DNA of 28,862 nucleotides from an uncultured Candidatus Peribacteria bacterium (lineage in GTDB: Bacteria; Patescibacteriota; Gracilibacteria; Peribacterales; Peribacteraceae). The translations under genes and the position numbers were made by a program. The stretch's first letter is position 1; each line of letters opens with the position of its first letter. The stretch lies in the NCBI GenBank assembly GCA_964457395.1, contig CAYWEU010000087.1, positions 1 to 28,862 on the forward strand, read 5' to 3'. The notes below the pieces were generated by a model. It did no database searches. It was given only the letters and a program-made list of their open reading frames with translations, and was not told the DNA's origin. Shown here one piece after another: positions 3,670-28,862 of the stretch.

Positions 3670-3706
3670 TGGTCAGTAGTCAGCACACTGCCTACTGTCT
3701 ACTCCT
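3670..3706. repeat. Degenerate inverted heptamer-periodic element (CAGTAGT type)
   Basis: Left arm TGGTCAG TAGTCAG (3670-3683) matches the reverse complement of CTGCCTA CTGTCTA (3688-3701) at 11/14 positions. Confidence 0.55.
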
Positions 3707-3743
3707 CTTTCAAATCCCCTACTTTTCGCATATCCTGACGACC

Positions 3744-4166
3744 ATGGCAGATGACTCAACACCAACCGGCGCACAGGGACAAGCAAAGGCTCAAGCCTCC
3801 GCTAGCGCAGGACTGGCTATTCCGCCTGGAATTCAGGAGAAGTTTGGCCCGCTCCTGGAGCTCATCAAGGCATCCGAGAGTATGAATAATGAGGAACGAC
3901 AGTACTGGATCAACATCCTGCCGATCATGACCGCGGAACAACTGAAGAACTTGGAAGATATTCTGATGAACGAAAAAAAGCAGCTGGCGGCGATCGACGA
4001 GAAATACAGCAAAGAAGTGTCTGCACTGGGCGACGGTGTGTCGCTCGAGACCATGGAAAAGTCTCTCAAGGAAAAGCGAAAACAACGCACAGACCAGGAG
4101 CGCAACGCCGCGGATCAAGAACAGCAGAAAGAAAAGGATATTTTGGAGCAGATACAAAGTTCGTAA
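3744..4166 (+). CDS. Hypothetical alpha-helical/coiled-coil protein
   Basis: Start moved from 3669 to ATG 3744 (MADDSTPTG...), which follows TTTCAA-17-TATCCT-7. Ordered core LLELIKASESMNNEERQYWINILPIM is followed by a charged coiled coil. Confidence 0.8.
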   Translation: MADDSTPTGAQGQAKAQASASAGLAIPPGIQEKFGPLLELIKASESMNNEERQYWINILPIMTAEQLKNLEDILMNEKKQLAAIDEKYSKEVSALGDGVSLETMEKSLKEKRKQRTDQERNAADQEQQKEKDILEQIQSS

Positions 4167-4172
4167 AAGGCC

Positions 4173-4213
4173 GTAGCGGAGACGCCGCGTCTCCGACTGG
4201 GCTGAAGGCCCAG
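4173..4213. repeat. REP-like twin hairpin between convergent genes
   Basis: GTAG (4173-4176) is followed by CGGAGACG-ccg-CGTCTCCG (4177-4195) and then CTGGGC-tgaag-GCCCAG (4197-4213). Confidence 0.6.
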
Positions 4214-4313
4214 ATGGATTATCTATGCAAATGCGACTACGACCTGCTGACCCTCGCAATGTCTGGTCGATCTTTCGTATTTTTCGAGAGCAGATAAGTG
4301 CCGGAATGTATTT

Positions 4314-5273
4314 TCACGCGCAAGCAACGATAATCCTGTCCGCGAGCGCACTCAGCTCCACGGTGTGCTCTGCTGTGTACTTAAACCCGCCGGTTTTCAG
4401 CTCTGTATCGGCATCCGCCGCCCAGTTGACCAGCCAGCGCACGCGCCGAAGATCGAGAGACTTGACCAGCGGCATGAGCCCCCGCACGCCCAAAAAATGC
4501 ACGCCGGTTGCATCCATAATCGCCTTGTCGCTCTGGACGCCCGATTGCACGCACACCCAAACGGCTGCAAGATTTTTGACCATGTTCAGCAGCACCGCCC
4601 ACATGCCGTACGCGTCTTCGCCGCGTTCGACTTGATCGTTGAAGAACTTGAGCGCTTCGTTGGTTTTGCGATTGCCAACCAGGTCGGTCAGCCGCCAGAT
4701 GACCTGCGCGCCGGACGGCACGGCCAGCAGTTCGACCTGCTCGACGCCGATTGTTGACGAGTAGGCCGCCAGCTTGCTCAATTCGTTGGACAATGTCCAT
4801 TGATCAGTACCGACGATGCGCAGCAGCAATGACAAAGCTGCAGGCTGCGCTACCGCACCGCGTGAAGCCAGAAATTCTTTCATCCATGTCTGCAACTGCG
4901 CGGGTGGGAGCGGCTTGAAGTCTTTCGTTTCCCCCGCTTGGGCTTGCAGTTCTTTGGTCACCGACAACCGCTTGTCGATCTTGGACGAATAGACGACGAA
5001 TACCGTTTGATGATGAATGGCCTCGAGGACAGTCAGCAACTGCTGTTTGTCGACCTTGGGAATACCGTCGCAGAGCACCAAGCGTTTCTCGGCGATGAAC
5101 GGCAACACCGATACGGCGTCCAGTAATTCGCTGAGACTCTGCGAGGGGCCATGCAGCTGGACGAGGTTCTCGGCTCCGTGCTTTGTGCGAAAATTTTCCT
5201 TCCAGCGCAGAATTTCTTGGGAGAGAGCGTACTCGTTCTCGCCGGTGAAGAGATAGAAATTCGGGTTGGGCAT
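4314..5273 (-). CDS. holA: DNA polymerase III subunit delta
   Basis: Contains YLFTGENEY, PFIAEKRLVL, IVGTDQWTLSNELSKLAAY and IWRLTDLV, with the typical length of 319 aa. Confidence 0.9.
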   Translation of the reverse strand: MPNPNFYLFTGENEYALSQEILRWKENFRTKHGAENLVQLHGPSQSLSELLDAVSVLPFIAEKRLVLCDGIPKVDKQQLLTVLEAIHHQTVFVVYSSKIDKRLSVTKELQAQAGETKDFKPLPPAQLQTWMKEFLASRGAVAQPAALSLLLRIVGTDQWTLSNELSKLAAYSSTIGVEQVELLAVPSGAQVIWRLTDLVGNRKTNEALKFFNDQVERGEDAYGMWAVLLNMVKNLAAVWVCVQSGVQSDKAIMDATGVHFLGVRGLMPLVKSLDLRRVRWLVNWAADADTELKTGGFKYTAEHTVELSALADRIIVACA

Positions 5274-5291
5274 CCGTTGGGTAGAATAGCA
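5274..5291 (-). promoter_or_regulatory. Extended -10 promoter for holA, leaderless type
   Basis: Minus strand reads TG-C-TATTCT (5291-5283), then 9 nt, then ATG. Confidence 0.55.
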
Positions 5292-5381
5292 TTGTTCAGC
5301 TGCACATGGGTCTTTTTACAGGTGTTTAGCTTCCAGAAAATATTAGATACTATTTCTTGAGTAAATCAACTCTACTGCGGT

Positions 5382-7979: not shown

Positions 7980-8048
7980 GTGTAAGACTGCGATGCACCC
8001 GATGCTATCGGGCTTAAGGTAAACTTCCTTTATACTGCCACACTCGAT

Positions 8049-8573: not shown

Positions 8574-8659
8574 TGGTGGGCCGGGCTGGACTCGAACCAG
8601 CGAAGGCGTAAGCCAGCAGATTTACAGTCTGCCCCGTTTGACCGCTTCGGTACCGACCC
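8574..8659 (-). tRNA. tRNA-Tyr (GTA)
   Basis: Reverse complement is GGGTCGGTACCGAAGCGGTCAAACGGGGCAGACTGTAAATCTGCTGGCTTACGCCTTCGCTGGTTCGAGTCCAGCCCGGCCCACCA, with acceptor stem, anticodon loop CTGTAAA, long variable arm, TTCGA loop and encoded CCA. Confidence 0.97.
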
Positions 8660-8663
8660 ACGA

Positions 8664-8698
8664 ATGAATTATGAATGAAGACGTATGAATTAAGAAGA
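8664..8698. repeat. Heptamer-periodic array (ATGAATT type) directly upstream of tRNA-Tyr
   Basis: ATGAATT ATGAATG AAGACGT ATGAATT AAGAAGA in strict 7-nt phase; only one arm is evident. Confidence 0.65.
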
Positions 8699-11654: not shown

Positions 11655-12881
11655 TTATTCATAACGCAAAGCTTCCATCGGATGCAGCGCCGCTGCCTTT
11701 CTTGCTGGGGAAATGCCAAAAACAATACCAGTAATGACAGCCATCAGTAGAGACACGACGATCGCTCCGGTCGACACGCTAAAATGATATGTGGAGAGCA
11801 AGCTGCCAACGAGCAGTGACGCGAAAAACGCGAGCACGATGCCGAGCACAATGCCGATGATTCCGCCGATGACCGTGAGCACGATCGACTCGCAGAGAAA
11901 CTGCAGCAAGATGTCTCGATGCAAGGCACCCAGCGCCTTGCGCAGGCCGATCTCGCGCGTGCGCTCCGTCACGGAGACCAACATGATGTTCATGATGCCG
12001 ATGCCGCCGACAACCAGCGAGATCGTGGCGATGGTCGTGATGAACGCCGTGAGGCCAACAGAGACAATGCTGAGGATCTGGCTGGCTTGTTCGGATGAGC
12101 GCACGATAAAGTCGTCTTCCGTCGGGTCGTCAATCGGATTGTCGATGTTGTGTCGCTGCCGAAGCAATGATTTAACGTCATCGAACGCGATGTCGAAGCT
12201 GCCGGTGGCCTTCATGGTGATGTAATTGACGAACTTCTGGCCGGTGACGATTTTCGCGAGCGTGAACGGAACGTAGATGCGGTCGTCGGCGTTCTGGAAA
12301 AACTGAGAACCGAGCGGCTTGGACAGGCCGATGACGGTGTAATGCTGTTCGCCAATCTTGACGCGCTTGCCGATGGGGTCCGTGAGTCCGAACAGTTTCT
12401 CCTGCGCATCAGGAGCGAGCACCGCAACGGACTTGGCACCGTTGTTGTCGCTCGCATCCAGAAAGCGGCCACGCTCGGGTGCGATGTTCTGGTTCTCGAA
12501 GAATTCCGTCGTCACGCCGAAGACCTGCGGATGCGCTTCTTCGTTGCCGTACGACGAAGTGCCCGGGATAAACACCACCGGCGCGACAGTCGTGATGGTC
12601 TTGAGTTTTTCCAGCTCGCGCACATCCTCGAACGTCAGGCTGTCATGGCCGGTGGATACGGCGTTGGGGCCGCCTTGCTGCTGACCGGGGAAGATGACCA
12701 TGCTTTTGGCTCCGAGACTGCTGATTTGACCCAGTATGACGCCTTTCATGCTATCCCCTATCGAGCTCATGAGCACGACGGAACCAACACCGATGATGAT
12801 GCCGAGCATGGTCAGTAGCGACCGTCCGACGTTGGCAGTCACACCTTTGAAGGCCGAATGGAAGGTATCGTTGAGACGCAT
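11655..12881 (-). CDS. ABC exporter permease, MacB/FtsX family (first copy)
   Basis: Same MacB motifs as the downstream paralog, ending PARKAAALHPMEALRYE. Confidence 0.93.
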   Translation of the reverse strand: MRLNDTFHSAFKGVTANVGRSLLTMLGIIIGVGSVVLMSSIGDSMKGVILGQISSLGAKSMVIFPGQQQGGPNAVSTGHDSLTFEDVRELEKLKTITTVAPVVFIPGTSSYGNEEAHPQVFGVTTEFFENQNIAPERGRFLDASDNNGAKSVAVLAPDAQEKLFGLTDPIGKRVKIGEQHYTVIGLSKPLGSQFFQNADDRIYVPFTLAKIVTGQKFVNYITMKATGSFDIAFDDVKSLLRQRHNIDNPIDDPTEDDFIVRSSEQASQILSIVSVGLTAFITTIATISLVVGGIGIMNIMLVSVTERTREIGLRKALGALHRDILLQFLCESIVLTVIGGIIGIVLGIVLAFFASLLVGSLLSTYHFSVSTGAIVVSLLMAVITGIVFGISPARKAAALHPMEALRYE

Positions 12882-12886
12882 GCGCG

Positions 12887-12930
12887 AAAATTTGAAATTT
12901 GAAATTTACAATTTTTAATTATTTCAATTT
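12887..12930. repeat. Heptamer-periodic array (GAAATTT type) containing the ATPase stop codon
   Basis: AAAATTT GAAATTT GAAATTT ACAATTT TTAATTA. The minus-strand TAA at 12919-12921 lies within it. Confidence 0.65.
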
Positions 12931-13644
12931 GTTACTCCTTCCTGCAATGACTCGCGCAAAATCTTTTTTATCAGACTCAATTCTCCCATCTTTGATTCTG
13001 ATGATCCTGCGCGCATGTGCCGCAGTCGCGCTCTCGTGAGTCACCAGGATGATGGTGTGACCGTCTTCGTTGAGTTTCTGCAGCGCCTGCATCACCGCGA
13101 TGCCGGACGCGGAGTCCAGGTTGCCTGTGGGCTCATCGGCGAAGATGACATCCGGGTCTGTCACCAGAGAACGGGCGATGGCCACACGCTGCTTCTGTCC
13201 GCCGGAGAGCTGGCTGCTCAGATAATCTTTGCGATCGGTCAGACCTACGGCTTCCACTGCCTTGAGCGCCCTTTCGAGCCGCTGCGACTCCGGAATCGTC
13301 GGGTGGTAGAGCAGAGGCAGCAACACGTTTTGCAGCACAGTCGTCCTGGGCAGCAAATTAAACGCTTGAAAGACGAAACTGACTCTGGTTGCGCGTATTC
13401 GCGCAAGTGCGTCATCGTTCATGTTTATCGTCGGCTCGCCCTGGAACAAATACTGCCCGCCGGTCTGCATGTCGAGAAATCCAAGAATGTGCATCAGTGT
13501 CGACTTGCCAGACCCCGAGGGTCCCATGATCGCCACGAACTCGCCTTTCTCGATGGTTACATTGATATCGAACAGCACGGGGGTTTCTACTTCGTCATTG
13601 AAATACGATTTCGAGAGATTGATGGTTTGAATGAGAGAGGACAT
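12919..13644 (-). CDS. ABC transporter ATP-binding protein (LolD/MacB-type)
   Basis: Walker [10 protein letters not shown], signature [15 protein letters not shown], Walker [13 protein letters not shown]-loop VTHE. Confidence 0.96.
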
Positions 13645-13653: not shown

Positions 13654-13751
13654 AGAATTACGAATTAGGAATTAAGGAATTAGGAGTACGTATTGATTCT
13701 GAATAAAATTTCTGAATGATGACAAGTGGAGAATTCTTAATTCTTAATTCG
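13654..13751. repeat. Inverted heptamer-periodic element (GAATTA type) between MFP and ATPase genes
   Basis: Left arm AGAATTA CGAATTA GGAATTA (A)GGAATTA; right arm GAATTCT TAATTCT TAATTCG is reverse-complementary to left-arm units. The MFP's last codons ITN* lie in the right arm. Confidence 0.8.
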
Positions 13752-15507
13752 TGATCAACACAATCACAGTTTCCCCTTCCTCCACTCCACTGACTTCTCT
13801 ATATCCTCCTTCGGCGTCCATGCCGGTTTGCACCGTGCGCTCTTCGACGGTTTTGCCATCGGGTTTGAGGATCCGAACGACCTTGGCGCCATCTGCATTG
13901 TCGAGCACAGCTCGCTGCGGCACGCTCATGACTCCCTGGCGCATGCCAGTGATGATGCGCGCGTCGCCCGTCATGCCGATCTTGAGTTCGTCATGCGTGT
14001 GACGAAAGTCCAGCTTGACGCGATACTTGGACACGCCGTCGCGATCAGTCGGCGCTGCGTCGATATCGCTGACGTACAACTGGAAGTTCGTCCCACGAAA
14101 GGCATCGAGCTCTATGGAACCACTCTGTGTGGCCAGGACCTTGGGCACGTCGATCTCCGACACGAACATCTCGATGCGGTACGGGCTGTCACCGAGCATG
14201 GTGACTGCAGAGTCGGCCGGACGCATCTCGCCGGCTTTGACGCTGACTTTCGTAATGACACCGTCGACCGGAGCACGCAAAATCGTATCGTTGTACTGCG
14301 CCGAGGCGCGCGCAACGTCGGCCTGCGCCTGACGCACGCGTGCGCGAGCGGCGTCGACATCCGTCTGGCGTGGCGGAGCACGCTTGAGGTCCAGCTGCGC
14401 TTGATCGATCCTCAGCGACGTTTCGTACGTAGTGATATCAGCCTTGGCCTTGTCACGCGTACCCTTGAGCGATGACACCGTACTTTCTTCTGTGATGATC
14501 CTGGTGTCAAAATTCGCCGATGCGTCACGAAGACTCTTGATAGCGGCATCGAGTTTGGCAAGTGCTGCCTGCATGCTCGTGCGCTGGGCAGCGAGTGTCG
14601 CCAGATGCGTTTCTTTGCCCGTGTTGGTCAAGTAACTCGTGGTCGCCAAGGCGGAGACAACGTCATACGCCCGGTTCAACGCGTCCGATGATTGTCCGAC
14701 TGCGAGACGCGATGCTTCGAGTGAACGCAACGCCGACTGGTAATCGAGCGCCGTGGACGCATGCTGCTGAGCAGCATCGATCGCCAGTTCGGCCGCATCG
14801 CGTTGCTTGCGCATCAGCTCGTACTGGAGCGTGCCCGACTTGATCACCGCATCTTGGATGTCATTGCTGTTGAAGACCGACGAAATCGTGATCATTGCGG
14901 TTTTCGCGACAGCCAGCTGCTGCGTGATCGTGCTGCTCGCTGTGGCGACTTCTCCGGACAGACTGATCGATGTTTCGGACCTCAGCGAAGCCAACTTCTG
15001 CTCGGAGAGTTTCAAACTGTCCTCGGCATTCTTGAGCGTCTGTTTGGCGCCATCGAGCGATGCGCGCTTGTTGGCGACTTGCGCTTCGTAGATAGCGATG
15101 TCCTCGGGCCTGGACCCCTGCTCCAATGCTTGCATTTGGGCCACTGCCGACTGCAAGTTTGCCGACGCACTCGCTACACTCGCCGCCAGGCTTCCCGCGC
15201 GAAGAGCTGCAAGTACTTGCCCTGCCTTCACGTTGTCTCCTTCTCTGACAGAGACGCTTGCAACGACGTCCATCATCGGAAACTGCAACCGCAGATCACG
15301 CTCAGAGACAACTGTTCCAACGGCTTCAACTGTCTGCACCAAGTCGCCCTTCACTACTTTTGCCGTAACGTACGTTGGCTGCCTAGGTCCCGAAGCGGCG
15401 TATGCGACTCCACCAATGAGCAACACAACGAGAATAGCAATCGAAGTTTTTGGTCGTCGACGGGCCACGGCCCATGCTTTTTTTGGATAGGCGAGAATGG
15501 TACTCAT
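13744..15507 (-). CDS. Periplasmic adaptor (MacA/RND-type membrane fusion protein) with long coiled coil
   Basis: N-terminal TM, lipoyl halves (VASVSVREGDNVKAGQVLA; ILRAPVDGVITKV), about 330-aa helical hairpin, LKIGMTGDARI and VPQRAV. Confidence 0.92.
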   Translation of the reverse strand: MSTILAYPKKAWAVARRRPKTSIAILVVLLIGGVAYAASGPRQPTYVTAKVVKGDLVQTVEAVGTVVSERDLRLQFPMMDVVASVSVREGDNVKAGQVLAALRAGSLAASVASASANLQSAVAQMQALEQGSRPEDIAIYEAQVANKRASLDGAKQTLKNAEDSLKLSEQKLASLRSETSISLSGEVATASSTITQQLAVAKTAMITISSVFNSNDIQDAVIKSGTLQYELMRKQRDAAELAIDAAQQHASTALDYQSALRSLEASRLAVGQSSDALNRAYDVVSALATTSYLTNTGKETHLATLAAQRTSMQAALAKLDAAIKSLRDASANFDTRIITEESTVSSLKGTRDKAKADITTYETSLRIDQAQLDLKRAPPRQTDVDAARARVRQAQADVARASAQYNDTILRAPVDGVITKVSVKAGEMRPADSAVTMLGDSPYRIEMFVSEIDVPKVLATQSGSIELDAFRGTNFQLYVSDIDAAPTDRDGVSKYRVKLDFRHTHDELKIGMTGDARIITGMRQGVMSVPQRAVLDNADGAKVVRILKPDGKTVEERTVQTGMDAEGGYREVSGVEEGETVIVLITN

Positions 15508-16085: not shown

Positions 16086-16490
16086 ATGTCTGAATCCATG
16101 CTTTCTGGTTCGACACAATCTGATCTTGCGGCAATGAATGATCGTCGTTTGGAGTTGACTGAGCGCAAATACGGAAGAGGTGATCCTTTATCGGGAGAAG
16201 AAGATGCAGAGCTGAGACGAATAGTGACTCAACACTCGATGGATTTTGCAAAGATGCGTCATCTTCCGGATTGGGTGAGCCCTTTGGCGCCACTGCTCGA
16301 TGGCAGCGGTGCTCCGATTTCTATGAGATCGAACATTGCAAAAATATTAGCAGGTGATGAGCGTATCACGCGCGAAGAGCGAGCAGCTGCAGAGTTGGGT
16401 ATTTGGCCCCATGCCACAGCACTGAGTGCTGTGGCTGTGCCTCAACAAGCTCCGAGCACAGGCTATGGCGAATACAACGCCGGACACTAA
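16086..16490 (+). CDS. Hypothetical protein
   Basis: Start moved from 16005 to ATG 16086, because the earlier part overlaps the marR promoter and a plus-strand TTGACA-16-CAAAAT (16032-16059). No recognisable family; ends overlapping the convergent gene by 4 nt. Confidence 0.55.
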   Translation: MSESMLSGSTQSDLAAMNDRRLELTERKYGRGDPLSGEEDAELRRIVTQHSMDFAKMRHLPDWVSPLAPLLDGSGAPISMRSNIAKILAGDERITREERAAAELGIWPHATALSAVAVPQQAPSTGYGEYNAGH

Positions 16491-17317
16491 GGTTTGCTTG
16501 TCTTCAGCTCTTCCAGCGCCAATCGCAATGCTTCCTGCACCGGGCGCATGACAAGGCCTTCTTCAGCAAGTTTTTTCGACGACAGAATGCAGTTGCTGCG
16601 CCCGGTCTTCACTACACTCGGTAAATCCCGCAGTGAAAGCGGCTCACACGGCTGCGAGGCATCTATCACGCGCTGATATTCGCTCATGATGTCGTACGGC
16701 GAGAGCGAGCCGGGGTTGACGACGTTGTAGATACCCGTCGCGCGCTTGTCGATGAGAGTCTGGATAGCAGTCACGAAGTCGGGTAAATACGTGATGGAGT
16801 TTTGCACATCGAGCAGTTTCGTGTATTTCTTGAGTTTGTTGATCAGGTTTCGCTCATGTGCCGTGCCATCGAACGGCATGCGCAGGCGTAGCTGGAGCAC
16901 CGGAAACTCGGCAAGGATACGGTCTGTCCACAGCTTGCTCTTAGCATAGAAGCTGCCGGTGAAGTTCGGCTCGTCTTCCTCTGAAAATCCTGCTCCGCCG
17001 TTGTCGCCCTCGTAAATGCAGCCCGAGCCAATGTGCACCCAATACATACTGCGTTTCGCGCATTCGTCGAGCAACACAAGAGGGCCGGTGACGTTGCTGC
17101 GGATGGTTTCGAGTGTATGCGTCTCGCACCAGTCCACGTTGGGGCGGCCTGTTTTGCCCGCGGCGTTGATGACGATGTCGGGTTTCTCGTTGTCCAGCAA
17201 CGCGCTGACAGCCTGCTGATCGGCAATATCGACGGATGGCATGACAGCATCAGGAAAAGCTATTTTCAAGTGTCCTCCAAGGTAGCCTCTGCCGCCGACG
17301 ATGAGAAGTTTGCTCAT
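16487..17317 (-). CDS. NDP-4-keto-6-deoxyglucose 3,5-epimerase/4-reductase-like SDR (RmlD-like, NRS/ER type)
   Basis: Contains GGRGYLG, NAAGKTGRPNVDWCE, SGCIY, FTGSFYAKSK (YxxxK) and LRLRMP. Start placed at MSKLL (17317), 10 nt after TACCAT. Confidence 0.85.
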   Translation of the reverse strand: MSKLLIVGGRGYLGGHLKIAFPDAVMPSVDIADQQAVSALLDNEKPDIVINAAGKTGRPNVDWCETHTLETIRSNVTGPLVLLDECAKRSMYWVHIGSGCIYEGDNGGAGFSEEDEPNFTGSFYAKSKLWTDRILAEFPVLQLRLRMPFDGTAHERNLINKLKKYTKLLDVQNSITYLPDFVTAIQTLIDKRATGIYNVVNPGSLSPYDIMSEYQRVIDASQPCEPLSLRDLPSVVKTGRSNCILSSKKLAEEGLVMRPVQEALRLALEELKTSKP

Positions 17318-17357
17318 TGCACGGCCCATGGTAACAGATGGTAAGAGAAAGCTGGAA

Positions 17358-17430
17358 AGAATTAAGAAGTAAGCATTAAGCATTAAGAACAACAAGTATT
17401 CCTAATTCTTACTTCTTAATCCATAATTCC
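17358..17430. repeat. Inverted heptamer-periodic element (AGAATTA type) in a divergent promoter region
   Basis: ATTAAGAAGTAAGCATTA (17361-17378) matches the reverse complement of TAATTCTTACTTCTTAAT (17403-17420) at 17/18 positions; units are in 7-nt phase on both arms. Confidence 0.85.
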
Positions 17431-17434: not shown

Positions 17435-18145
17435 ATGTCAGGTTCATCGATTCCTCCGCCAATCCCCTATCTCGTTGAGCGAACAAGCAACCGTTGTTCG
17501 CGCGCGATATGCACGCAGGAACACGTGCTGATACGCTTGGCAGGCGGCTTGAGTGTCCGGCAGGAGCAACAGCACATCGAGTCGTTGCTGCGGCGCATCG
17601 GGAAAGCGTTCGTGCGCATGCGGTCCACACAGCTGGTCAACCCGTTTGAGGATATCGTCAAGCATCGGCGAGACACTGTTCTCACACTTGGCGATGGCAA
17701 GCGTCATGTGCTGAAGATCAGCAACGGGAAAACACTACGAGTACGCATCGACGAAACCGGCGACTGGGATGTCCGCCTTCCGGCGTCGTACTCGAAACGG
17801 CGACTGCACAGGCTGCTCTGGCGAGCCCTTGCCGATGCGGAATACGACTCAATCCTGCAGAGACTGCATGCGATCAACGACCGAACGCTGCAGGAGAATA
17901 TTTCTTCGTTTCGACTGCGCTTTGCCAGCTCCAAGTGGGGCAGCTGTTCCAGAAGTGGTGTGATGCTGAATACGGCACTCTTGTTCTTGCCGACAGCGGC
18001 TTTGGATTACGTGATCCTGCATGAACTCTGCCACTTGTCGCACCCGAACCACTCCAAAGCGTTCTGGAACGAAGTCGAACGATGGATGCCGGGGTATAGG
18101 GAAGTATTGAAGATTGTGAGGGGGTATAGATTGACGAAATTGTGA
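17435..18145 (+). CDS. YgjP/DUF45-like zinc metallo-hydrolase (M48/SprT-like HExxH)
   Basis: Contains SKWGSCS and LDYVILHELCHLSHPNHSKAFWNEVERWMP. Confidence 0.88.
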   Translation: MSGSSIPPPIPYLVERTSNRCSRAICTQEHVLIRLAGGLSVRQEQQHIESLLRRIGKAFVRMRSTQLVNPFEDIVKHRRDTVLTLGDGKRHVLKISNGKTLRVRIDETGDWDVRLPASYSKRRLHRLLWRALADAEYDSILQRLHAINDRTLQENISSFRLRFASSKWGSCSRSGVMLNTALLFLPTAALDYVILHELCHLSHPNHSKAFWNEVERWMPGYREVLKIVRGYRLTKL

Positions 18146-18216
18146 GGAAATCGAGGAGATCTTTAAGCAACTCTTCTTCGATTTCCTCGATTTCTTCTCA
18201 ATATTCTTCGATTTCC
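18144..18216. repeat. Inverted nonamer-periodic element (GAGGAAATC type)
   Basis: Left arm GAGGAAATC GAGGAGATC overlaps the ygjP-like stop; right arm TTCTTCGAT TTCCTCGAT ... TTCTTCGAT. Confidence 0.75.
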
Positions 18217-18267
18217 CCCCTCTCGTTGTGCTTTTCCCTTCGTCATCCTTGCGCTACAATCCTGTGC

Positions 18268-20493
18268 ATGGCCAGCAAACGCAGGAAAAACAAGCGACGG
18301 AAGGCAGCCAGTCACCTGGCCTTAAAGGAGCACACGTGGCGACAGGTCAAAGCGGCAGTCTCGATGGGTCTGGGGCTCGTGTTGATGCTCGCTCTGGGCG
18401 GAAACGCAGGGCCGGTCGGCAACGGCATCATCACTGTGCTGACGTTCTTCTTTGGGGCGTGGAGCATTTTGTTCCCGATCTTCTTACTGCTGCTCGGGGC
18501 ATTTTTGTTCATGGCGCGCACGCACAAGACCGAGCTCAAGCGGACATACGGACTGCTATTGTGCCTATTCGCGTTCCTCGGCATCGTACACTTGCGAGCG
18601 CCACTCATGGACATCGCCGATCAACGCGACTCGCTTGGAGGTGCCGTGGGCTTTATGGTCGCTTTTCCGTTCGCCACGTTTTTGAGCGCGCAAGTCGGTT
18701 ATGTCATCTTGAGCACTGCGATGCTCGTCGGGCTGTTCATCACCTTCGAGCCGGATGTGCTGGGTCTTATCGCACGCGTCAAAGAACTCACCGAACCTTC
18801 GAAAAAGCGCAAAGAAGAAGACGAAGATGATGAATCTTTGACCGAGGCAGTCGCATCGGAGTTCGTGAAGAAAGTCCTGTCGGGCAAAGATCTGGTCGAG
18901 CAGGACGAGAAGCACACAGACATCAACATCGTTCGCCCCGCATTTGTCGATCACAACAATGACGAACAAAAGGCCAGGAGTGAGAGATTCAAGACCGCAG
19001 CTGCGGCCAAAAACGCCGATTTGCTGCAGATGAACGACACGAGGTTCGAAGAATGGAAATTTCCAGAGCTCGACTTGCTCGACTTCAAACACAGCGAACT
19101 GAAAGTCAAAGACGAAGAACTCAAGCTCCAGGCCGCGCGCATCAAAGAAAAGCTGAAAGAATTCGACATCGATGTGACGATGAAAGACGCGCACCCCGGG
19201 CCAACCGTCACGCAGTTCACGCTGCAACCGGCGGAGGGAATAAAATTGAGCAAGATCGAGAGCCTGAAAGACGACTTGGCACTGGCATTGGCCGCGCAAA
19301 GCCTGCGCATCGAGGCGCCCATCCCCGGCAAGTCGCTCGTCGGCATCGAGATGCCAAACGAGAAGCGTTCCACTGTGTATTTGCGCGAGTTGCTGGAGTC
19401 GAGCGTGTTTCGCCAGTCGGACTCGCCGCTGACTATTCCGCTCGGACGCGGAGTATCCGGAGAGTCATTCGTTGCGACTATAGAAGACATGCCGCACTTG
19501 CTCATCGCCGGAGCGACAGGTGCTGGAAAATCCGTCTCGATGAACGCGCTGCTGATCTCGCTGTTGTACCAGAACGCGCCGCATGAGCTGAAGTTCATCT
19601 TAGTCGACCCCAAGCGCGTCGAGCTGATGCCCTATAACGGCATCCCACACTTGCTGACGCCGGTCATCACCGAGTCAGAGAAAGCATTGCAAGCGCTACG
19701 CTGGGCACTGGCGGAAATGGGACGACGGCTCCACAGATTCTCCGAAACCGGTGTGCGCAACCTGGCCGAGTACAACGCCAAACAAGATAACGAAGAGAAA
19801 ATGCTCCCACGCATCGTCATTGTCATCGACGAGCTGGCGGACTTGATGATGCGCCAACACCGCAAAGATACAGAAACGATGATCGCGCGCATCGCGCAGA
19901 TGGCACGCGCCGTCGGCATGCACCTGATTATCGCCACACAGCGCCCGAGCGTGGACGTCATCACAGGCCTTATCAAGGCCAATATCCCCACACGCATCGC
20001 GTTCCGTGTGGTCAGTGCGGTCGACTCGCGGACGATCTTGGACGGCATAGGGGCAGAGGACCTGCTCGGCAAAGGCGACATGCTCTACATGACCGCATCG
20101 ACACCCAACCCCGTGCGCATCCAGGGCATTTATATCTCGACCAAAGAAATCGAGCGCGTGATCAACGCCGTGAAAGTCGCAGGCGGAGGCATGTTGACCG
20201 AAGAGATTACTCTCGGCGAAGGCAACGAACCGGGGGCTCCCGGAGGCATGCCGATGATCGACTTGGATGCCGACGATAACGGTGGCGACGATTTTTTCTT
20301 CGACGCAGTGCGCATTGTGCAAGAAACAGGCAGAGCGTCGGCGAGCTTGTTGCAGCGTCAGCTGAAAGTCGGCTATGCCAGGGCAGCGCGACTGCTCGAC
20401 ATCATGGAAGAGAAGGGCATCATCGGACCGTCGGACGGAGCAAAGGCGCGGAAGGTGTATATCGAAAAAATGGCTTCAGAGTCGGCTGTGTAA
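18268..20493 (+). CDS. ftsK: DNA translocase FtsK/SpoIIIE
   Basis: N-terminal TM region, LRIEAPIPGKSLVGIE, LLIAGATGAGKS, VIDELADLM, ATQRPSVDVITG and gamma domain LLQRQLKVGYARAARL. Start at ATG 18268, 7 nt after TACAAT. Confidence 0.96.
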   Translation: MASKRRKNKRRKAASHLALKEHTWRQVKAAVSMGLGLVLMLALGGNAGPVGNGIITVLTFFFGAWSILFPIFLLLLGAFLFMARTHKTELKRTYGLLLCLFAFLGIVHLRAPLMDIADQRDSLGGAVGFMVAFPFATFLSAQVGYVILSTAMLVGLFITFEPDVLGLIARVKELTEPSKKRKEEDEDDESLTEAVASEFVKKVLSGKDLVEQDEKHTDINIVRPAFVDHNNDEQKARSERFKTAAAAKNADLLQMNDTRFEEWKFPELDLLDFKHSELKVKDEELKLQAARIKEKLKEFDIDVTMKDAHPGPTVTQFTLQPAEGIKLSKIESLKDDLALALAAQSLRIEAPIPGKSLVGIEMPNEKRSTVYLRELLESSVFRQSDSPLTIPLGRGVSGESFVATIEDMPHLLIAGATGAGKSVSMNALLISLLYQNAPHELKFILVDPKRVELMPYNGIPHLLTPVITESEKALQALRWALAEMGRRLHRFSETGVRNLAEYNAKQDNEEKMLPRIVIVIDELADLMMRQHRKDTETMIARIAQMARAVGMHLIIATQRPSVDVITGLIKANIPTRIAFRVVSAVDSRTILDGIGAEDLLGKGDMLYMTASTPNPVRIQGIYISTKEIERVINAVKVAGGGMLTEEITLGEGNEPGAPGGMPMIDLDADDNGGDDFFFDAVRIVQETGRASASLLQRQLKVGYARAARLLDIMEEKGIIGPSDGAKARKVYIEKMASESAV

Positions 20494-22008: not shown

Positions 22009-25000
22009 TCAAGCCTGTTCTTGGTCTTGCAGTTGCGAGAAATCCAGATTTTTCACCTTCGTCCATACTGCTGTAATCAGCTTCCGCAGATCACTTTTCT
22101 CGGCCATCGTGACTGAAAATTCGCGACGGATGGGTTCCTCGCCACGCTCGCCGATGAAGTCGAGCGCGAAGACCTGGGGTACCAGCAGCGGATCGGAGAG
22201 TTCGAGGAGCAAAGCATAGAACACCAGCTGGCGGAAGAGCTCTCCCTCGCCCGTGCGCGAGATTTTGCCCGGCTCCAGTCCGCCGCGGATCTCGGATTCG
22301 GCCTTGGGCCGACCGGTCTTGTAATCGATGACGATGGCATCGGCAGAGGTTTCGGAAAATCGGTCTATGCGGTCGATCTTGCCCTTGATGGCGTCGTCGC
22401 CAAGTTCGCTGCGATAGTCGCGCTCCACCGCATGCAGAACAGGCGTCTCACTCTCCAGCCGCTCGGCGAAGTAGGCCGGCAACGCAACCTCTGCTTGGGA
22501 TAAGAGGCGGCTGCGCTGGACGTCGGTCAATGCATTGCGCTCGGTGAGATTCCACTGAAAGGCACGCAGGAAATCCTGTAGCGAAAACTCGGTCCCCTTT
22601 TGCTGGGCGACCGCCCATTCCTTCAGCGCCCAGTGCACTGCGGTGCCGTACCCCATCGACAGAATTTTCTTCTCATCGTACGCCTCGGGCTGGCCGAGGA
22701 GGTCGACGCGCCGAAACTCCAGCGGATCGCGCAGAAAGCGTGTCAGCGACGTCGGCGACAGCGCGAAGGTCTTTATCCGCTCAGTCAAATACGCACGCAG
22801 CTCTGCGTCCATTTCTCGCGTTGGCTGGAGGAGCAGGAGCGATGCCTCACTGGGATTCTTCAGCACACCGTCACGCTCGGCAAGCGGACCAGCTTCGGCG
22901 AAGAAGGCCGACGGGGAAACCATTCTGCTTCGCTCGCCGACGGCGAATTCACGCGGACAAACAAAGAGGAGCTCACGCTTGGCGCGGGTCATGGCCACGT
23001 ACGTCACGCGCCGTTCATCTTGGTGCTTCTCGAAACTCTTCTGATCCTTCTGCCATCCGAAGAGCAAATCCTCAGGGATCGACAGCATCGAGGGATTGCG
23101 GCGGCGATCCCAGTGACCATCGCGAAAACTGCTGAGGATGACGGTATGGAACTCGAGACCCTTGCTCTGGTGCGCGGTGATGAGCCGAACGCCGGCGCTG
23201 ACCAGATGCGGCAACCGGTACGTGACACGCACTTGTGAGAACTGGGGATCTGCATAGAGCGCAAGATCGGCGATGAACTCGGCAAGCGACAGCGAGGGAT
23301 GGTCGAGGCAGCGCTGCTTGGCGAAGTTGAAGAACGCTTCGATGGCGGCGAGGTCGAGGGGATCGAGAGACAAGCGGGTAGCGGATAGCGAATAGCGGTT
23401 AACATCTTTGCTACTCGCTACCCGCTTATCGCTTACCGCTTGCGTAAGTCCGCACTCTCGCAACACATGCTCGACCGTTTCGAGCACCGTCCGGATCTGC
23501 TGCTTTTGAGCCAAGTCCAACAGCGTGTCGCGGGCGCGGATGAGCGACAGAGAGTCGGTCAGCGGCAAGCTCAGTGTCTCCAGCTCGAGGAGCGTGTCGT
23601 GGGAGCTGCGTTCCCGCTCGCGTGCGCTCGCCACAACGCGCGCGATGTCCGCAGGGTGACAGCCGAAGCAGTCGCAGGCGAGGGCTGGCAGCAGAGCACT
23701 CGACGTTGTCATGCGAACAAGGCTCCTAAGGATCGTTACCGCCTGCGAAACAATCGGATGCGTGAGCAGGTCAGACTTGCCCTCCAGGATGACCGGAATG
23801 TTTCGTGCGCGCAGAACATCGTAGAGTGGAAAGAGCTCCGCGTTGGTCTGGACCAACACGGCAAGTTCCTCAGGTGCAATGCCAGACTTCAGTCGTTCCT
23901 CGACAAGATCCGCAATCAACCACGACTCAGCGGCATCGGAGACGGCGCGCAGCAACACGGGCTCCGTGCCCTTCTCCTTCGTCGCGGCGATCAAGTCTTT
24001 TGTCAGCCCCGAGATGCGACCCACAAGTCGCTCTTCGTTATGGGCAATCAATCGTCCGGCGGCATCCAGGATGGACTGCGTCGAACGGTAGTTCGTTGTC
24101 AGAGCGATGACAGGAGCCTGCGGAAAGCGCGCATGGAAGTCGAGCATGTGTTCCAGATTCGCACCCTGAAAACGGTAAATGGCTTGATCGTCGTCTCCCA
24201 CCAGCAAAAAGTTCGGATCGTTCGGCACCGCATCGTAGGTGGTGAGCCGCTCGATCACCCGCCACTGCGCGCCGTTTAAATCCTGTGCCTCATCGACCAG
24301 GATGTACTGGTAGCGCTCTTGCATTGACAGTAGCATCCATTCCTCTTCGGCCAGCGCCTGCAGGACGACCAGAATCATATCGTCGTAGTCGTAGGCCCCG
24401 CGCGCGGTAAGCGCCTGGGCGTACTGATCGAAGATATCGACCAACTCGCGGAACTTGCGCGCGGCGAGGAGATTTTTCTCGTGCTGCTTGGTGCCTTTGC
24501 GACTCTTGCCTGCCATCACCTTCTCATACTCGTCAGCGACACGCCGCAAGTCGGCAAGCGTTTTTCCTTCGCGCTTGCAATCACTGATCCTCGACAAGAT
24601 GTCGGGGATCCGCCCGTAGGGATCCTTGGGATTGATCAACGCGCCGGGCGACACAGCATCGATCACGCCCTGGAGCAACTGGTAACGCTGGACATCGGAG
24701 AGCTGCTGCCGGGCCGCCCAGTCCGAGAACGCCACCGGGTGACGATCGATGATGGAGGCGCAGAATCCGTGGATAGTGCTGATGGTCACGCCGTACGCAT
24801 CGGCGCCGATGTACGCGCGCAGCCGCTCGCGCATGGCAGTCGCTCCGCTCACCGAGAACGTCAGGCACAGGATGTTGCCCGGCCGGATCTGCGTTTTGCG
24901 CAGAATATTTGCAACACGCATGGCAACGACCTGCGTTTTGCCTGTCCCCGGGCCTGCGACGACCATGACAGGGCCTTCGATGGCCTCCACGGCAGTGCGC

Positions 25001-25044: not shown

Positions 25045-25081
25045 AGAGGGATTGTACACTGAAAGAATCGGAATTTTTAAT

Positions 25082-25945
25082 TTACAACTTCTGCATGTAT
25101 CCTGTCCCCATCTTCGCCAAGAAGATCATCGAAAACGCGATGACGAGCTGGCTCATCAGCAGCCAGAAGAACAATGCGAGCTTGAACGAAAACAGCCCTA
25201 TCGCCATGGCCACGAGTGTGCTGACCCAGACGAACGCAAGCGCCATCAGTCCAAACGAAAACAAGGTACCGACGATGCGCAGCCATGCTCCGCGCGTGTA
25301 AGTGTGGCTGAGTGTTACGCTGCGAAAAACGCCTTTGCCGTTTTTGAGGAAGATCACGGGCGCAAACAGAAACCGAGGCAGGAAGTACGCACCCGTAACA
25401 AAACCGACGAACGGAATCCACACGAACGCCCGGACAAGCGACCACAGCCAGATGGCGGATATCGGCACGATGACGCTTACGACACGAAGAGCCATTTCGT
25501 ACGCAGACGCCTGGCCCTGGACGGCTAATACGAGAAAGAAAATGCTCGCAACGAAGACAATCGTCATGCTCGCGAGAGTCGATGCGAAGAATATCGGACC
25601 CGAAAGAAGAACATACCGACTGACAGCCTGCTCTCGCCTGGATTGCTTTTGATCGGGGTTCGCCTGTCCCTGCGCGTCATGTTGCTGGATGGTTTGTACT
25701 GTTTTCGCAATCTCGTCGAAAGATTTCCCGGCAAATTGAGTTTCCACTTCGCTATCGAGTTCCTCTCTGGTCATGCCTGCATCTGTTGCGATGGCAGTGG
25801 CGCGGCTTTCCATCTGACGTGCAAAGAACGCTTGCGATGCGGCGATGAGCAACGAAAATACAACAGCGGCGACGGCGATGACTTTTGCTTTCTCAACGAA
25901 CAATCGCCAACTTTCCAGCAGCAGATGACTTAAGGTCTTGGGCAT
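25082..25945 (-). CDS. Hypothetical multi-pass membrane protein
   Basis: 287 aa with about 5-6 TM helices and one soluble loop; begins 21 nt after the rpoD stop, so it is probably co-transcribed. Confidence 0.8.
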   Translation of the reverse strand: MPKTLSHLLLESWRLFVEKAKVIAVAAVVFSLLIAASQAFFARQMESRATAIATDAGMTREELDSEVETQFAGKSFDEIAKTVQTIQQHDAQGQANPDQKQSRREQAVSRYVLLSGPIFFASTLASMTIVFVASIFFLVLAVQGQASAYEMALRVVSVIVPISAIWLWSLVRAFVWIPFVGFVTGAYFLPRFLFAPVIFLKNGKGVFRSVTLSHTYTRGAWLRIVGTLFSFGLMALAFVWVSTLVAMAIGLFSFKLALFFWLLMSQLVIAFSMIFLAKMGTGYMQKL

Positions 25946-25966
25946 GACAGTCAGGCAAAAAGAAGG

Positions 25967-27376
25967 TTACGCGTTCCTGTTTTCGTCCATAGTGTACGCG
26001 CAACGATCACACTTGCGAAAGGTTTTTCCGGCTTGATGAATTTCGACCAGCGTACCCTTGCGGCACTCCGGGCACAGGTTGCCTGTCATGAAGTTCGGCA
26101 TGGCGAAGCCGCTGCCTTTCCCGGCGCCGTACTCGCGGATGCATGCGGAACGCGGATGATCGCGCAGCTTCTGCAGAACCTTGGCCTCGATCTGACGGAT
26201 GCGTTCGCGGGTCACACTGAACTCTTTGCCGACTTCCTCCAGCGTGTGGCCAATGCCATCTTTCAGCCCAAAACGCATTTCGATGATCTTGCGTTCTCTG
26301 GGTGTCAAATACTCGAGCATCGCATGCACGTTCTCTTTGCGCAGCTGGCGGTTGGTGGCATCGAAAGGATTCACTGCTTCTTCGTCCTCGATAAAGTCTC
26401 CCAGCTTGCTGTCTTCCTCGGACCCCACGGGAGCTTCGAGCGAAATGATATCCTGAGAAATTTTTTGAATGTGGCGCACCTTCTTGATGTCCATCTCCAT
26501 TTCGACTGCCAGCTCCTCGACCGTTGGCTCGCGTCCTAGTTCTTGTACCAGCCGACGCTGTGTGTGGGTGAGCTTGTTAATGGTCTCGACCATGTGCACA
26601 GGGATACGGATGGTGCGCGCCTGGTCGGCGATAGCGCGCGTGATGGCCTGACGGATCCACCACGTGGCGTACGTGGAGAACTTGAACCCGCGCTCTGGGT
26701 CGAACTTCTCGACGGCACGGAAGAGACCGATGTTGCCTTCTTGAATCAAATCCAAAAACGATAATCCTCTGCCAATATATTTTTTTGCGATGGAGACAAC
26801 CAGACGCAGGTTGGCCTCGGCAAGCTGCTGCTTGGCACTCGAGTCGCCTTTGCGGATGCGCCGAGCCAACTCGACTTCTTTGCGCGCGTCGATGAGCGGA
26901 ACACGACCGATTTCGGACAGATACATGCGTACCGAGTCGTTGCTGATCTCGAGCAAATCCACTTCGCGCTCCTTGCGCCGCTTCTTGTCGGCCTCAGTTG
27001 TCTGCTTCTCGTCTTTTAAGCGAATACCCGCCGTCGCAACGACTTCGAGCGATTCATCGTCGCTATCTGCCGCAGTGATGGCCCCAGTGCCGGAATCTTC
27101 TTCCGGCGACTGTGTGCTCTTGCCGCTGGATTTCCGCTGCCAAATGAGCGTGTCTTTGACATCGATAACGTCAACGCCAAGGTCGACAAAGAGCGTGTAG
27201 ACATCGTCGAGCAAGTCGATATTTTCCTCGGCATTCGGCACAGCCTGCAAGATTTCCTGATGCGTGACATAGCGCTGTTCACGCCCCTTTTTTACAAGGT
27301 GCTTGATCGCTTCGGGGAACGCCTTCAAGTCAGCGTCCGTTGGCTGATGGATGAAACTACGTGGATGTGAAGCCAT
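25967..27376 (-). CDS. rpoD: Primary RNA polymerase sigma factor RpoD/SigA with C-terminal Cys4 extension
   Basis: Region 1.1; region 1.2 [11 protein letters not shown]; region 2 [12 protein letters not shown]...[10 protein letters not shown]...[30 protein letters not shown]; region 4 [24 protein letters not shown]. Start at MASHP (27376), downstream of TATACT 27399-27394. Confidence 0.97.
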
Positions 27377-27545
27377 GTGAAGAGCGAAAAGAGAGTATAC
27401 GCAGTCCATGCCAAATACAAGCGATGTTGAGGAAGTCGGGAAGGAGCGCATTCATTTTGAGTGCAGCCTTCCCTGCGGCCGTCTTGGCACCGCCCTTCTT
27501 TCCACTCTCTCGATTGGCCGTAAGTTGCGCATCGGAAACTGCAAT
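27357..27545 (-). pseudogene. Probable remnant of a small basic 'QxxANRxN...GxKTxxGK...NALxHGL'-type gene
   Basis: Not in the ORF track (no ATG; first codon ATT). Reads (I)[47 protein letters not shown]..., then runs over the rpoD promoter and start. Confidence 0.5.
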
Positions 27546-27587
27546 AGACGAAGTTGCCCGCCTCCGCTCTTGCGATGAACGTAGGAC

Positions 27588-28746
27588 TTACTCAAACCAG
27601 CCAACAAAGGATGGTTCAGGTGAATGGCCACGGAGTTCTGAGAACAATCTGACCGTATTGATACCTTCGGCATCTACAGCGCTCGTCGTATCGGTAATAT
27701 CAGAGCCTTCCCACTTATCCGCAACGAGGGCAAAGTTTTGCCTGTCTTCCGAGAAAGCAACCGCGTAACCGTCGCCTAGCTTTCTCTTTGTCCCCTGTAC
27801 ATCAATGAGGTCAGCAATGTAGGTGCCTTCGTCCGCAATGGTATAGACAATCCTTCTTCCATCAAAGGATGAGAAAAAGATCGTGGTTTGATCGCGCGAT
27901 ACCAAGAGCGTTTCTTGCCCCGTTTGGACATTTTTTACTGAAAGCGCACAGGGCGCCGCGACATCACCACCACCGAAGCTGCACTTCGTATGGAACGCGA
28001 CACCGTATTCTGGGAAGAAAGCACCTGGGTCAGCTTCAAGAGGAATCATCTGATAAGACCCATCTGCTACACGAATCCGAAGTAGTTCAGTCGGAAACGC
28101 GTAGTGATCAGAATTGCAGTACGCAAATTGCTCATCTTTCCCCCATGTTGGATTGAAGCAAGTCGAAGCACGTCCCTCGCCATTATTTTTGACTGCAACC
28201 ACTTTGCCTGTATTCATATCGCGCACCATGATTGTGGTAATGCCAGTCGGCGGTAGGTAATCGTGGTAGATAAGAGTCTTGCGGCTGGGTGAGAAATAGA
28301 AGTGTGTTGATGGTGGTATGAACTTCCCTTGGACTTCTTTGCCCGCTAGGTCAATGAGTGTGCTCTGTCCGATGTCAGGCGAAATCATTATCGTTGCATC
28401 ATCGTATTGCACAATACTGGGTGCAGCGTGGTTGTTCTTCGCAGGCATGGAATAAATCATTTTGTCTGCACCAGAGCGAAGGTCACGTAGATGTACCTCG
28501 TACTCGCCTGACGATTCGTTGTATATAGCATATGCCACATGCTGCTTTGGTGAAGTTGTCGCGGTGTTTCCTATTCGCAGCCGATAAATCATCTCTGCCA
28601 TTTCGCCTCTCGTCAGCTTTGAATCAAAGCCGAAAATTGTTGCAGGAATCGCATTTCGCGACGCAAGCGCATCAACATAACCCTTGTACCAAACAGAAGA
28701 ATTGGAAGTTGCTGATAGATCAAAGGCTTTGACGGTGATTTTTCAT
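27588..28746 (-). pseudogene. SLH-motif + TolB-like beta-propeller surface protein, 5'-frameshifted or truncated (open part 27588-28601 from the internal ATG)
   Basis: Frame continues upstream of 28601 as KITVKAFDL...WYKGYVDALASRNAIP...LTRGEMAEMIYRL (SLH-like) up to an in-frame TGA. ATG 28746 is one base out of frame across an A5 run. Downstream are repeated FSP/WG/FSED propeller-like blades. No signal peptide. Confidence 0.6.
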
Positions 28747-28805
28747 ATTTAATACCCTATTACCCTCGATGGCATTTGACAAGTTGTAATTAGAGTTCTA
28801 GGTCT

Positions 28806-28862
28806 AATCGAAGATATCGACGATTCTCGAATTGATCGAAGCCATAGTTTCCTCGATTTCCT
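28806..28862. repeat. Nonamer-periodic element (GAGGAAATC family), cut by the window end
   Basis: AATCGAAGA TATCGACGA ... TTTCCTCGA TTTCCT; shares TTTCCTCGATTTC with the 18144-18216 element. Confidence 0.6.

Follow-up and report, generated by a model that had tools for sequence, protein, structure and literature searches.

Periodic inverted heptamer and nonamer hairpins in a Peribacteria genome and their likeness to the flanks of four-helix-bundle protein genes

We analyzed a 28,862-nt contig of an uncultured Candidatus Peribacteria bacterium (CAYWEU010000087.1, assembly GCA_964457395.1; this whole stretch is called the window below), in which a first-pass annotation had described a dispersed family of mini-elements built of tandem 7-nt or 9-nt units in two inverted arms. 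The window has a G+C content of 54% and is densely coding, with an intergenic share of 7.6%. By translation, its genes are hisS, gyrB, greA, holA, two macB genes, genes for an ABC ATPase (abc) and a membrane-fusion protein (mfp), marR, an rmlD-like gene, a ygjP-like gene, ftsK, ham1, a gene for a 1011-aa UvrD/PD-(D/E)XK helicase, and rpoD. The only RNA family that Rfam gave in the window was a tRNA-Tyr (Table 1). The helicase and the YgjP-like protein have homologues labelled Candidatus Peribacteria, Peregrinibacteria, or Peribacteraceae, and the nearest syntenic relative compared (locus L001) has a helicase that is 73% identical and a YgjP protein that is 54% identical to those of the window. 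One of the repeat elements (17358-17430) recurs base for base in L006, an independently assembled Logan contig of this organism (1 difference in 1643 bases), and an assembly artefact was rejected on this ground.

Tandem arrays were identified with Tandem Repeats Finder (TRF), and 100 dinucleotide shuffles of the window served as the null. TRF reported seven period-7 arrays, compared with 0.58 expected (shuffle maximum of 4; n = 100). A periodic hairpin was counted when two ungapped inverted arms of at least 17 nt were 75% or more complementary, enclosed a loop no longer than 90 nt, and had an identical best period; being ungapped, the hairpin detectors miss diverged arms. Five such hairpins occur in the window, whereas the shuffles had a mean of 0.01 (maximum of 1; n = 100). 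Shuffled sequence therefore did not yield equally many periodic inverted arrays, and a chance origin is ruled out by both comparisons. When the inverted repeats of the window were ranked by length, four of the five hairpins were in the top five, and on either strand all five fold far better than shuffles (z = -3.3 to -6.3). The view that these are more than ordinary microsatellites holds, as they are nonrandom, two-armed, and polar.

The window contains eight members: five complete hairpins, the weakest being the one next to greA, one element truncated by the window end, and two one-armed arrays (Table 1). The first-pass annotation had listed ten copies. Those at 3670, 13654, 17358, 18144, and 23372 are indeed two-armed, and the copy at 28806 is truncated, which accounts for its nonsignificant fold. 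The copies at 8664 and 12887 are weak and one-armed; a second arm of the latter, said to extend to 12930, is unsupported, the array being confined to 12888-12907. For the last two, a "remnant" at 25071-25090 and a copy at 27412-27441, neither TRF nor the fold test gave a signal and no motif was significant, and we dropped them.

Table 1. Repeat elements of the window and its RNA gene, with pairing, fold, and setting
Feature	Position	Arms	Strand	Units	Pairing and fold	Setting
Compact heptamer hairpin	3664..3707	3664-3683/3688-3707		~2.5 GTCAGTA units per arm	16/20 paired; period 7; arm self-match 0.77/0.62; -21.8 kcal/mol; z -4.1	Begins on greA stop codon; 2-nt coding overlap
tRNA-Tyr	8574-8659		minus			Rfam/tRNA search
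One-armed degenerate heptamer array	8664..8696			ATGAATT/GAATTAT, GAATTAN family; two GAATTAN dimer hits	TRF score 31, 65% matches; no second arm, no fold (fold test vs shuffles)	Adjoins tRNA-Tyr 5' end on upstream side
One-armed perfect array	12888..12907			AAATTTG ×2.9	TRF 100% matches; no hairpin, z +0.8 (fold test)	Occupies 37-nt macB2-abc junction
Two-armed heptamer hairpin	13655..13755	13657-13676/13736-13755		GAATTAN ×4.3 + AATTCTT ×2.7, 59-nt loop	18/20 paired; period 7; self-match 0.85; z -5.5 plus strand, -3.3 minus strand	Occupies abc-mfp junction; right arm covers final 12 nt of mfp
Two-armed heptamer hairpin	17359..17429	17359-17389/17399-17429		AAGAATT/GAATTAA family, ~4.5 units per arm	24/31 paired; period 7; z -3.4 and -4.9 on the two strands	Between divergent rmlD-like and ygjP-like genes; ends 5 nt short of ygjP ATG
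Two-armed 9-mer hairpin	18139..18216	18139-18161/18180-18202		GAGGAAATC ×2 + TTCCTCGAT ×4.4	20/23 paired; period 9; -31.6 kcal/mol; z -6.0	Begins on ygjP stop codon; upstream of ftsK TACAAT box
Two-armed heptamer hairpin	23366..23433	23366-23392/23407-23433	minus	GCGGTAA-type ×4 per arm, 12-14 nt loop	22/27 paired; period 7; -38.8 kcal/mol; z -6.3 on sense strand	Within helicase gene
9-mer element cut by window end	28806..28862			ATCGAAGAT-type arm, then TTTCCTCGATTTCCT; second arm incomplete	Fold not significant	

Seven of the eight elements lie within the small intergenic share of the window, and they tend to be flush with their neighbours, with three on or over a stop codon (greA, ygjP, and mfp) and one just before an ATG. 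Automatic open reading frame (ORF) calls run two genes through hairpins, namely, ftsK from a GTG at 18142 (18142-18267) and the rmlD-like gene from a TTG at 17395 (16487-17395). The actual starts are likely at 18268 for ftsK and at about 17320 for the rmlD-like gene, and such elements can inflate gene models. The window (at 28862) and contig L006 (at the equivalent of window position 18145) each break off exactly within a 9-mer element, which fits assembly breaking at a multicopy repeat. A CRISPR-like array was rejected because the units are contiguous, without spacers. Sequestration of Shine-Dalgarno sequences was likewise rejected: the arm beside a downstream start is the pyrimidine arm, and the genes mostly have no Shine-Dalgarno sequence but a -10-like box 6 to 12 nt before the ATG.

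The elements had been described as conserving period without conserving sequence. The shared grammar is real, but the statement was too strong, because the units fall into families. GAATTAN is common to three elements (8664, 13655, and 17359), and ATCGAGGAA is common to both 9-mer elements (18139 and 28806). Searching the window for GAATTANGAATTA with at most two mismatches gave 13 matches (1.16 expected), all of them within the same three elements, and an exact 12-mer of the 9-mer family, TTCCTCGATTTC, is found at two sites 10.6 kb apart (18183 and 28849). None of the window units (GAATTAN, GTCAGTA, GCGGTAA, and ATCGAGGAA) contains a G3 tract. Arrays of three GAATTAN units like those of the window were matched in 120 or more stretches, which come from Cyanobacteria, Bacteroidota, Ignavibacteria, the candidate phyla radiation (CPR), and other groups, the matches listed also including Nostoc, Calothrix, Scytonema, and Microcystis. 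Three arrays among the matches listed directly abut a four-helix-bundle gene.

Filled and empty sites, a contrast that the first-pass annotation had foreseen, are found when the window is set beside its relatives. The orthologous junctions of relatives, which for the intergenic sites have at most 75% protein identity, are empty: the macB2-abc junction spans 0 to 16 nonperiodic nt in L001, L011, L012, and L015, the abc-mfp junction is 23 nonperiodic nt in L001 and L012, and the rmlD-ygjP junction is 53 nonperiodic nt in L001. The hairpin at 23366-23433 lies in frame within the helicase gene and codes for about 20 extra residues in a variable linker. This 20-residue insertion is the sole sizeable gap relative to the L001 helicase, and of 120 homologues only that of the window has it, the other 119 lacking it, and it is therefore a derived gain at the variable linker. 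The orthologous linker in L001 reads ...ATAGGCAAGTCG..., near the window's GGTAAGCG unit. In another lineage (P0189 in L287), the same linker holds an in-frame insert of a different, GC-rich, and nonperiodic palindrome (codons ~555 to 575), suggesting that the site takes hairpin inserts repeatedly. By these comparisons, the window elements are derived gains. The GC-rich, nonperiodic palindromes form a second Peribacteria family (CCCCTCTCC...GGAGAGGGG or GGGGTGAGGG type), with sites in the L287 helicase P0189, in the L007 spacer between the helicase and a membrane protein gene, and at 16000-16480 in L011.

Hairpins with the same grammar recur in other loci. Including the five in the window, there were 11 periodic hairpins in 244 kb of Peribacteria loci and, at roughly equal frequency, 23 in 686 kb of Bacteroidota loci, and they were rare (4 in 568 kb) in the other, mostly CPR, loci sampled. 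Peribacteria loci carrying them are L007 (GAATTGA and the 9-mer GAAACCAAA), L008, L010, and L015 (the 9-mer AGGAAACCA), and L011 has a 9-mer array (CCTCGGATT ×6) upstream of ftsK that is related to the window's 18139-18216 element. Polarity was assessed with 60 periodic hairpins from 1.88 Mb of related and other loci, in which the period was 7 in 37 hairpins, 8 in 12, 9 in 6, and 6 in 5. The purine-rich arm precedes the pyrimidine-rich arm in all five complete hairpins of the window, as claimed at the outset (P = 0.06), and the larger set bears this out, with a purine-rich first arm in 49 hairpins and a pyrimidine-rich one in 11 (P = 7.6e-7). Nonperiodic hairpins found with the identical detector had no such bias (232:206). 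Since polarity is unchanged by reverse-complementing a hairpin, it is intrinsic to the element and independent of the choice of strand. In the rpoD-helicase spacer of L013, a unit of about 24 nt (GGTCGTTCGGACCGCGGCATCAT) is repeated three times in tandem beside an inverted partner (GCCGCGGACGGAATG...); this is either the theme in a version with a longer period or an unrelated kind of repeat.

The elements share their grammar with the flanks of a particular gene family. The four-helix-bundle "23S rRNA intervening-sequence protein" family (TIGR02436/PF05635, bAvd-like; here, IVP) is very widespread, and structures have been solved, but we know of no role for it outside diversity-generating retroelements (DGRs) and of no catalytic activity of the bundle. 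That heptamer arrays flank such genes had been proposed in the first-pass annotation, and the link proved correct. The distantly related Peribacteria locus L005 has a TIGR02436 gene placed exactly between two inverted arrays of heptamers, and further arrays in the locus carry the GAATYYC unit of its flanks. In L045 (Chitinophagaceae), a gene for a TIGR04256 GxxExxY protein is bracketed by octamer arrays of the unit CACAAAGN, which is also the unit of three cargo-less hairpins within 23 kb. A search of the window and the first 86 loci for IVP or GxxExxY ORFs gave these two copies alone. About 9 kb from its four-helix-bundle cassette, L005 also encodes a 349-aa reverse transcriptase (RVT_1) next to a small ORF (11746-13013), which may be a DGR or another retroelement. 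In the window itself, no four-helix-bundle ORF was detected by jackhmmer over all ORFs or by Pfam on hypothetical ORFs, and the latter search gave no reverse transcriptase or transposase. "Empty copies" is therefore a fair wording for the window elements.

To place these cases in a wider context, Peribacteria four-helix-bundle proteins were aligned, and 80 loci with such genes from many phyla were surveyed together with L005; the sample consists of the first matches listed by a pattern scan. With an inverted flank defined as a score of at least 12 and shifted intervals used as controls, 72 of the 81 IVP genes among the matches listed had inverted flanks, versus 8 of 286 controls. At real gene boundaries in the same loci, periodic inverted flanks were found at 57 of 75 IVP genes, versus 9 of 133 other ORFs. 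Of these nine, five were themselves identified as TIGR02436 genes, with a unit that differed from gene to gene, leaving four true exceptions, cysD and ssb among them. TRF arrays in IVP flanks had mostly a period of 7 (113 arrays), followed by 8 (15), 6 (12), and 9 (1). A few ordinary genes are thus also bracketed, namely, a 166-aa gene without an NCBIfam hit (L083 9304-9930), cysD (L111 1475-2377), and ssb (L154 1679-2137), and the cargo is thus not strictly confined to two small gene families. A second four-helix-bundle paralogue often lies within 2.5 kb, each with arrays of a different unit (L131, L155, L162, L106, L160, and L115). None of 20 surveyed gene-bearing loci was located inside an rRNA gene.

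Arms were shared between IVP genes with at least 80% protein identity. The shared fraction fell to 25% of pairs at 60 to 80% identity and to roughly 1% where identity was under 50%. The arms are thus inherited with the gene over short distances and turn over much faster than the protein. Elsewhere in the locus, 29% of arrays shared the unit of the IVP gene, compared with 6% across loci. Apart from the Coxiella intervening sequence (IVS), we found no statement in the searchable literature that inverted arrays of heptamers are a general feature of the flanks of four-helix-bundle genes; closed journals or database notes might hold one.

We interpret the window elements as cargo-less members of a class of IVS-like cassettes, gained by insertion (at the borders of genes and, in one case, in frame), transcribed with their hosts, and folding as long imperfect stems, and we give this interpretation a probability of roughly one-half. 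The class consists of small inserted hairpins whose arms are inverted tandem arrays of 7-nt (here also 9-nt) units, with the purine-rich arm at the 5' side. Its full-size form brackets a small gene, nearly always a four-helix-bundle TIGR02436/PF05635 gene and sometimes one of the GxxExxY type. On the best reading, this form also takes in the intervening sequences of 23S rRNA that bear an ORF, long known as such. The window elements, nonrandom, grouped into unit families, and derived, have grammar and polarity in common with it. An element could have entered as a hairpin-shaped insert, or an array could have been gained first and one arm then copied onto the other. It would be cotranscribed with the host genes and fold into a long imperfect stem that, by analogy with IVS stems, is likely an RNase III substrate, or it may simply be tolerated. 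Slippage would alter the number of units, while arm-to-arm correction would keep the arms complementary. The purine-first polarity may be inherited from the gene-bearing form, in which it alone would provide a purine-rich leader before the cargo ORF in either ORF direction.

Several observations weigh against this interpretation. We did not see a gene-bearing copy with the window's units, the window being the part of the source genome covered, and profile searches found neither an IVP nor a GxxExxY gene in it. No target-site duplication, transposase, or mobility function was identified, and the flanks of the helicase site are too diverged from L001 for a duplication to be read. IVP genes with 60 to 80% identical proteins mostly have unrelated arms, and paralogues a few kilobases apart differ in their units, so de novo array writing or hairpin capture fits at least as well as copy-and-paste. 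In IVP-carrying loci, 71% of the arrays do not have the unit of the IVP gene. Two of the window arrays are one-armed. The transcribed strand is not in every case the one that folds better, so that a function at the RNA level is at most putative, and an RNase III cut of the hairpin within the helicase mRNA would be harmful.

The elements might instead be by-products formed in situ: a 7-nt seed grows by replication slippage, and a template switch copies the array in inverted orientation, with no element family or gene link, IVP genes landing in such hairpins or being tolerated there. Heptamers have been proposed to be a favoured slip length because of DNA polymerase contacts (Mrazek 2007, in the summary given in PMC4679880). 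The four different units among the five complete hairpins, the different arms of closely related IVP genes, the variable copy numbers in Coxiella and Xanthomonas, and the general excess of heptamer simple sequence repeats in bacteria would all suit such an origin, and the resemblance of the L001 linker to the window's unit makes a local seed conceivable in the helicase gene. Yet that same linker carries a different, nonperiodic palindrome in another lineage, arguing for insertion rather than local growth. Identical units also recur at unlinked sites (GAATTAN at three sites and the exact 12-mer at two), as does the octamer family of L045 in three hairpins and a gene-bearing copy. Slippage alone predicts neither the strong purine-first polarity nor the specificity for one gene family (57/75 versus ~4/128), and we regard in situ growth as an improbable explanation of the whole pattern.

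Another explanation is that the arrays are immobile cis-acting sites for a trans-acting repeat-binding protein, possibly the four-helix bundle itself with a paralogue-specific unit; gene-flanking arrays would then be autoregulatory, and the cargo-less ones would form a regulon. Each IVP paralogue does have its own unit, arms track the protein at 80% identity and above, and arrays of the gene's unit occur near the gene. Moreover, arrays adjoin start codons and promoters, related 9-mer arrays precede ftsK in both the window and L011, paired arrays in Geobacter have been annotated as "global regulator binding sites" (PMC2700814), and TAACTGA arrays in Beggiatoaceae lie 1 nt upstream of start codons (PMC4679880). 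However, the arrays are missing from the orthologous junctions of relatives, so the comparison shows no conserved regulon. One copy lies within an ORF, the flanked genes have no functional theme, and the need for two inverted arms is left unexplained. We doubt that binding sites explain the elements, although the explanations are not fully exclusive, as a unit-binding protein could also spread or maintain arrays. Ordinary intrinsic terminators or attenuators that are repetitive by coincidence are very improbable. Several elements begin on a stop codon, and a pyrimidine-rich 3' arm on either strand resembles the layout of a bidirectional terminator, but none was flagged by a promoter/terminator scan, the stems are AT-rich and have no T-run, and termination would do harm at three of the elements, which are situated inside an ORF or what appear to be operons.

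Known systems resemble the cassette class to different degrees. ORF-bearing 23S IVSs (Leptospira, Coxiella burnetii, and Brucella) enclose a four-helix-bundle ORF in a long stem made by inverted repeats at their ends, as do the gene-bearing loci L005 and L087 to L166. The C. burnetii IVS has three tandem GACAGAT units before its S23p ORF, strain variable in number, with an RNase III cut at the first repeat, and RNase III excision of IVS stems is known for Coxiella, Salmonella, and Leptospira (PMC4990558). Fold and inverted-repeat tests gave the same kind of long stem for the window elements. In contrast to IVSs, the window copies have no internal S23p/four-helix-bundle ORF, which is present in the relative L005; they lie outside rRNA, between or inside protein genes, and their arms are periodic throughout.

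The same sequence grammar is found in paired arrays of other bacteria. Xanthomonas has about 185 GGGAATC arrays, including 70 to 75 inverted pairs, and Nostoc has GGGGAYT arrays (Rehm et al. 2015, PMC4692102); the hepta- and octanucleotide arrays that occur in pairs in Geobacter metallireducens bear an annotation as putative sites of a global regulator (PMC2700814). The Xanthomonas and Geobacter pairs likewise consist of 7- or 8-nt units in two nearby opposite-strand arrays, mostly intergenic, with unit numbers that vary among relatives. Four window elements are such pairs with period 7, and two are a period-9 variant. The Xanthomonas and Geobacter genomes have one dominant G-rich unit each, studied as a G-quadruplex former, whereas in the window there is more than one unit, the units are AT-rich or mixed, a 9-mer variant exists, and one copy lies within an ORF, and the papers draw no link to four-helix bundles. 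Cyanobacterial short tandemly repeated repetitive (STRR) sequences and the TAACTGA direct repeats next to start codons in Beggiatoaceae (MacGregor, PMC4679880) are, like the window arrays, intergenic tandem heptamers often flush with start codons, but they are described as direct arrays in which inverted pairing is rare (one case; PMC4679880). According to MacGregor's summary, no other long simple repeats are as abundant in bacteria as heptamers (PMC4679880).

Repetitive extragenic palindromes (REPs), their paired form (REPIN), and the associated transposase (RAYT) offer the same logic of empty hairpins plus a gene flanked by the same repeats. REPs differ in being conserved, nonperiodic palindromes of 20 to 40 nt with a GTAG/CGTC head and a Y1 transposase gene, whereas the elements here are periodic, have diverse units, and accompany a four-helix bundle. 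The window elements have no GTAG/CGTC head, and their arms differ among copies; Pfam gave no RAYT domain in the hypothetical ORFs, and the other ORFs are housekeeping-like by inspection. Rickettsia palindromic elements (RPEs) and MITEs (miniature inverted-repeat transposable elements) are also small palindromic inserts tolerated in frame within conserved genes, as at 23366-23433. Both are sequence-conserved, nonperiodic families of about 100 to 150 bp or longer, and MITEs come with target-site duplications and a parent insertion sequence, none of which is seen here. A DGR in the window was rejected, as Pfam gave no reverse transcriptase in the hypothetical ORFs and the repeats are tandem and inverted, not a template/variable repeat pair.

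Two further features of the window concern transcription and translation. A TACAAT/TATACT-like box lies 6 to 20 nt before the ATG of most genes (e.g., 3109-3146, 18250-18267, 25045-25075, and 27377-27400), and a Shine-Dalgarno sequence is missing before most of them, which suggests leaderless or very-short-leader mRNAs in this lineage. RpoD has about 60 additional C-terminal residues past sigma region 4 (25967-26160, minus strand), among which a CPEC...CDRC motif resembles a zinc ribbon.

Since about 2007, it has been recognized that no long simple repeats are as overrepresented in many bacterial genomes as those of heptanucleotides; examples are the STRR sequences of cyanobacteria, GGGAATC in Xanthomonas, and the arrays of Geobacter and Beggiatoaceae. 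To our knowledge, their excess has no accepted cause or function. Paired heptamer arrays in Xanthomonas and Geobacter and the heptamers of the Coxiella IVS were already known; as far as the searchable literature goes, the general link to a gene has not been described. A mechanism that writes periodicity, as the first-pass annotation proposed, is compatible with the data, and the unlike arms of even closely related IVP genes would suit arrays that arise afresh wherever they occur. A broader hypothesis, which we advance only tentatively, is that a repeat system based on periodicity exists across bacteria and has as its protein partners the products of PF05635/TIGR02436 genes and perhaps those of GxxExxY genes. 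Each gene would be bracketed by its own 6- to 9-nt unit, cargo-less arrays would be dispersed nonautonomous copies or targets, and the system would be a main source of the bacterial heptanucleotide excess, its arrays possibly written anew per site by templated or slippage synthesis.

The window and the survey tie the heptamer excess to the four-helix-bundle gene and thereby turn two old unknowns into one testable hypothesis; the survey points to a possible reason why 7-base repeats are in excess in bacteria. Cargo-less arrays with the same grammar and polarity are scattered in the same genomes, including a CPR lineage, and in-frame insertion is possible even in essential-type genes. For CPR genomes, this bears on assembly, in which contigs break at the elements, and on gene calling, in which ORFs are extended through the arrays. 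For the protein family, it raises the question of whether the four-helix-bundle protein binds, maintains, or spreads its own flanking repeats.

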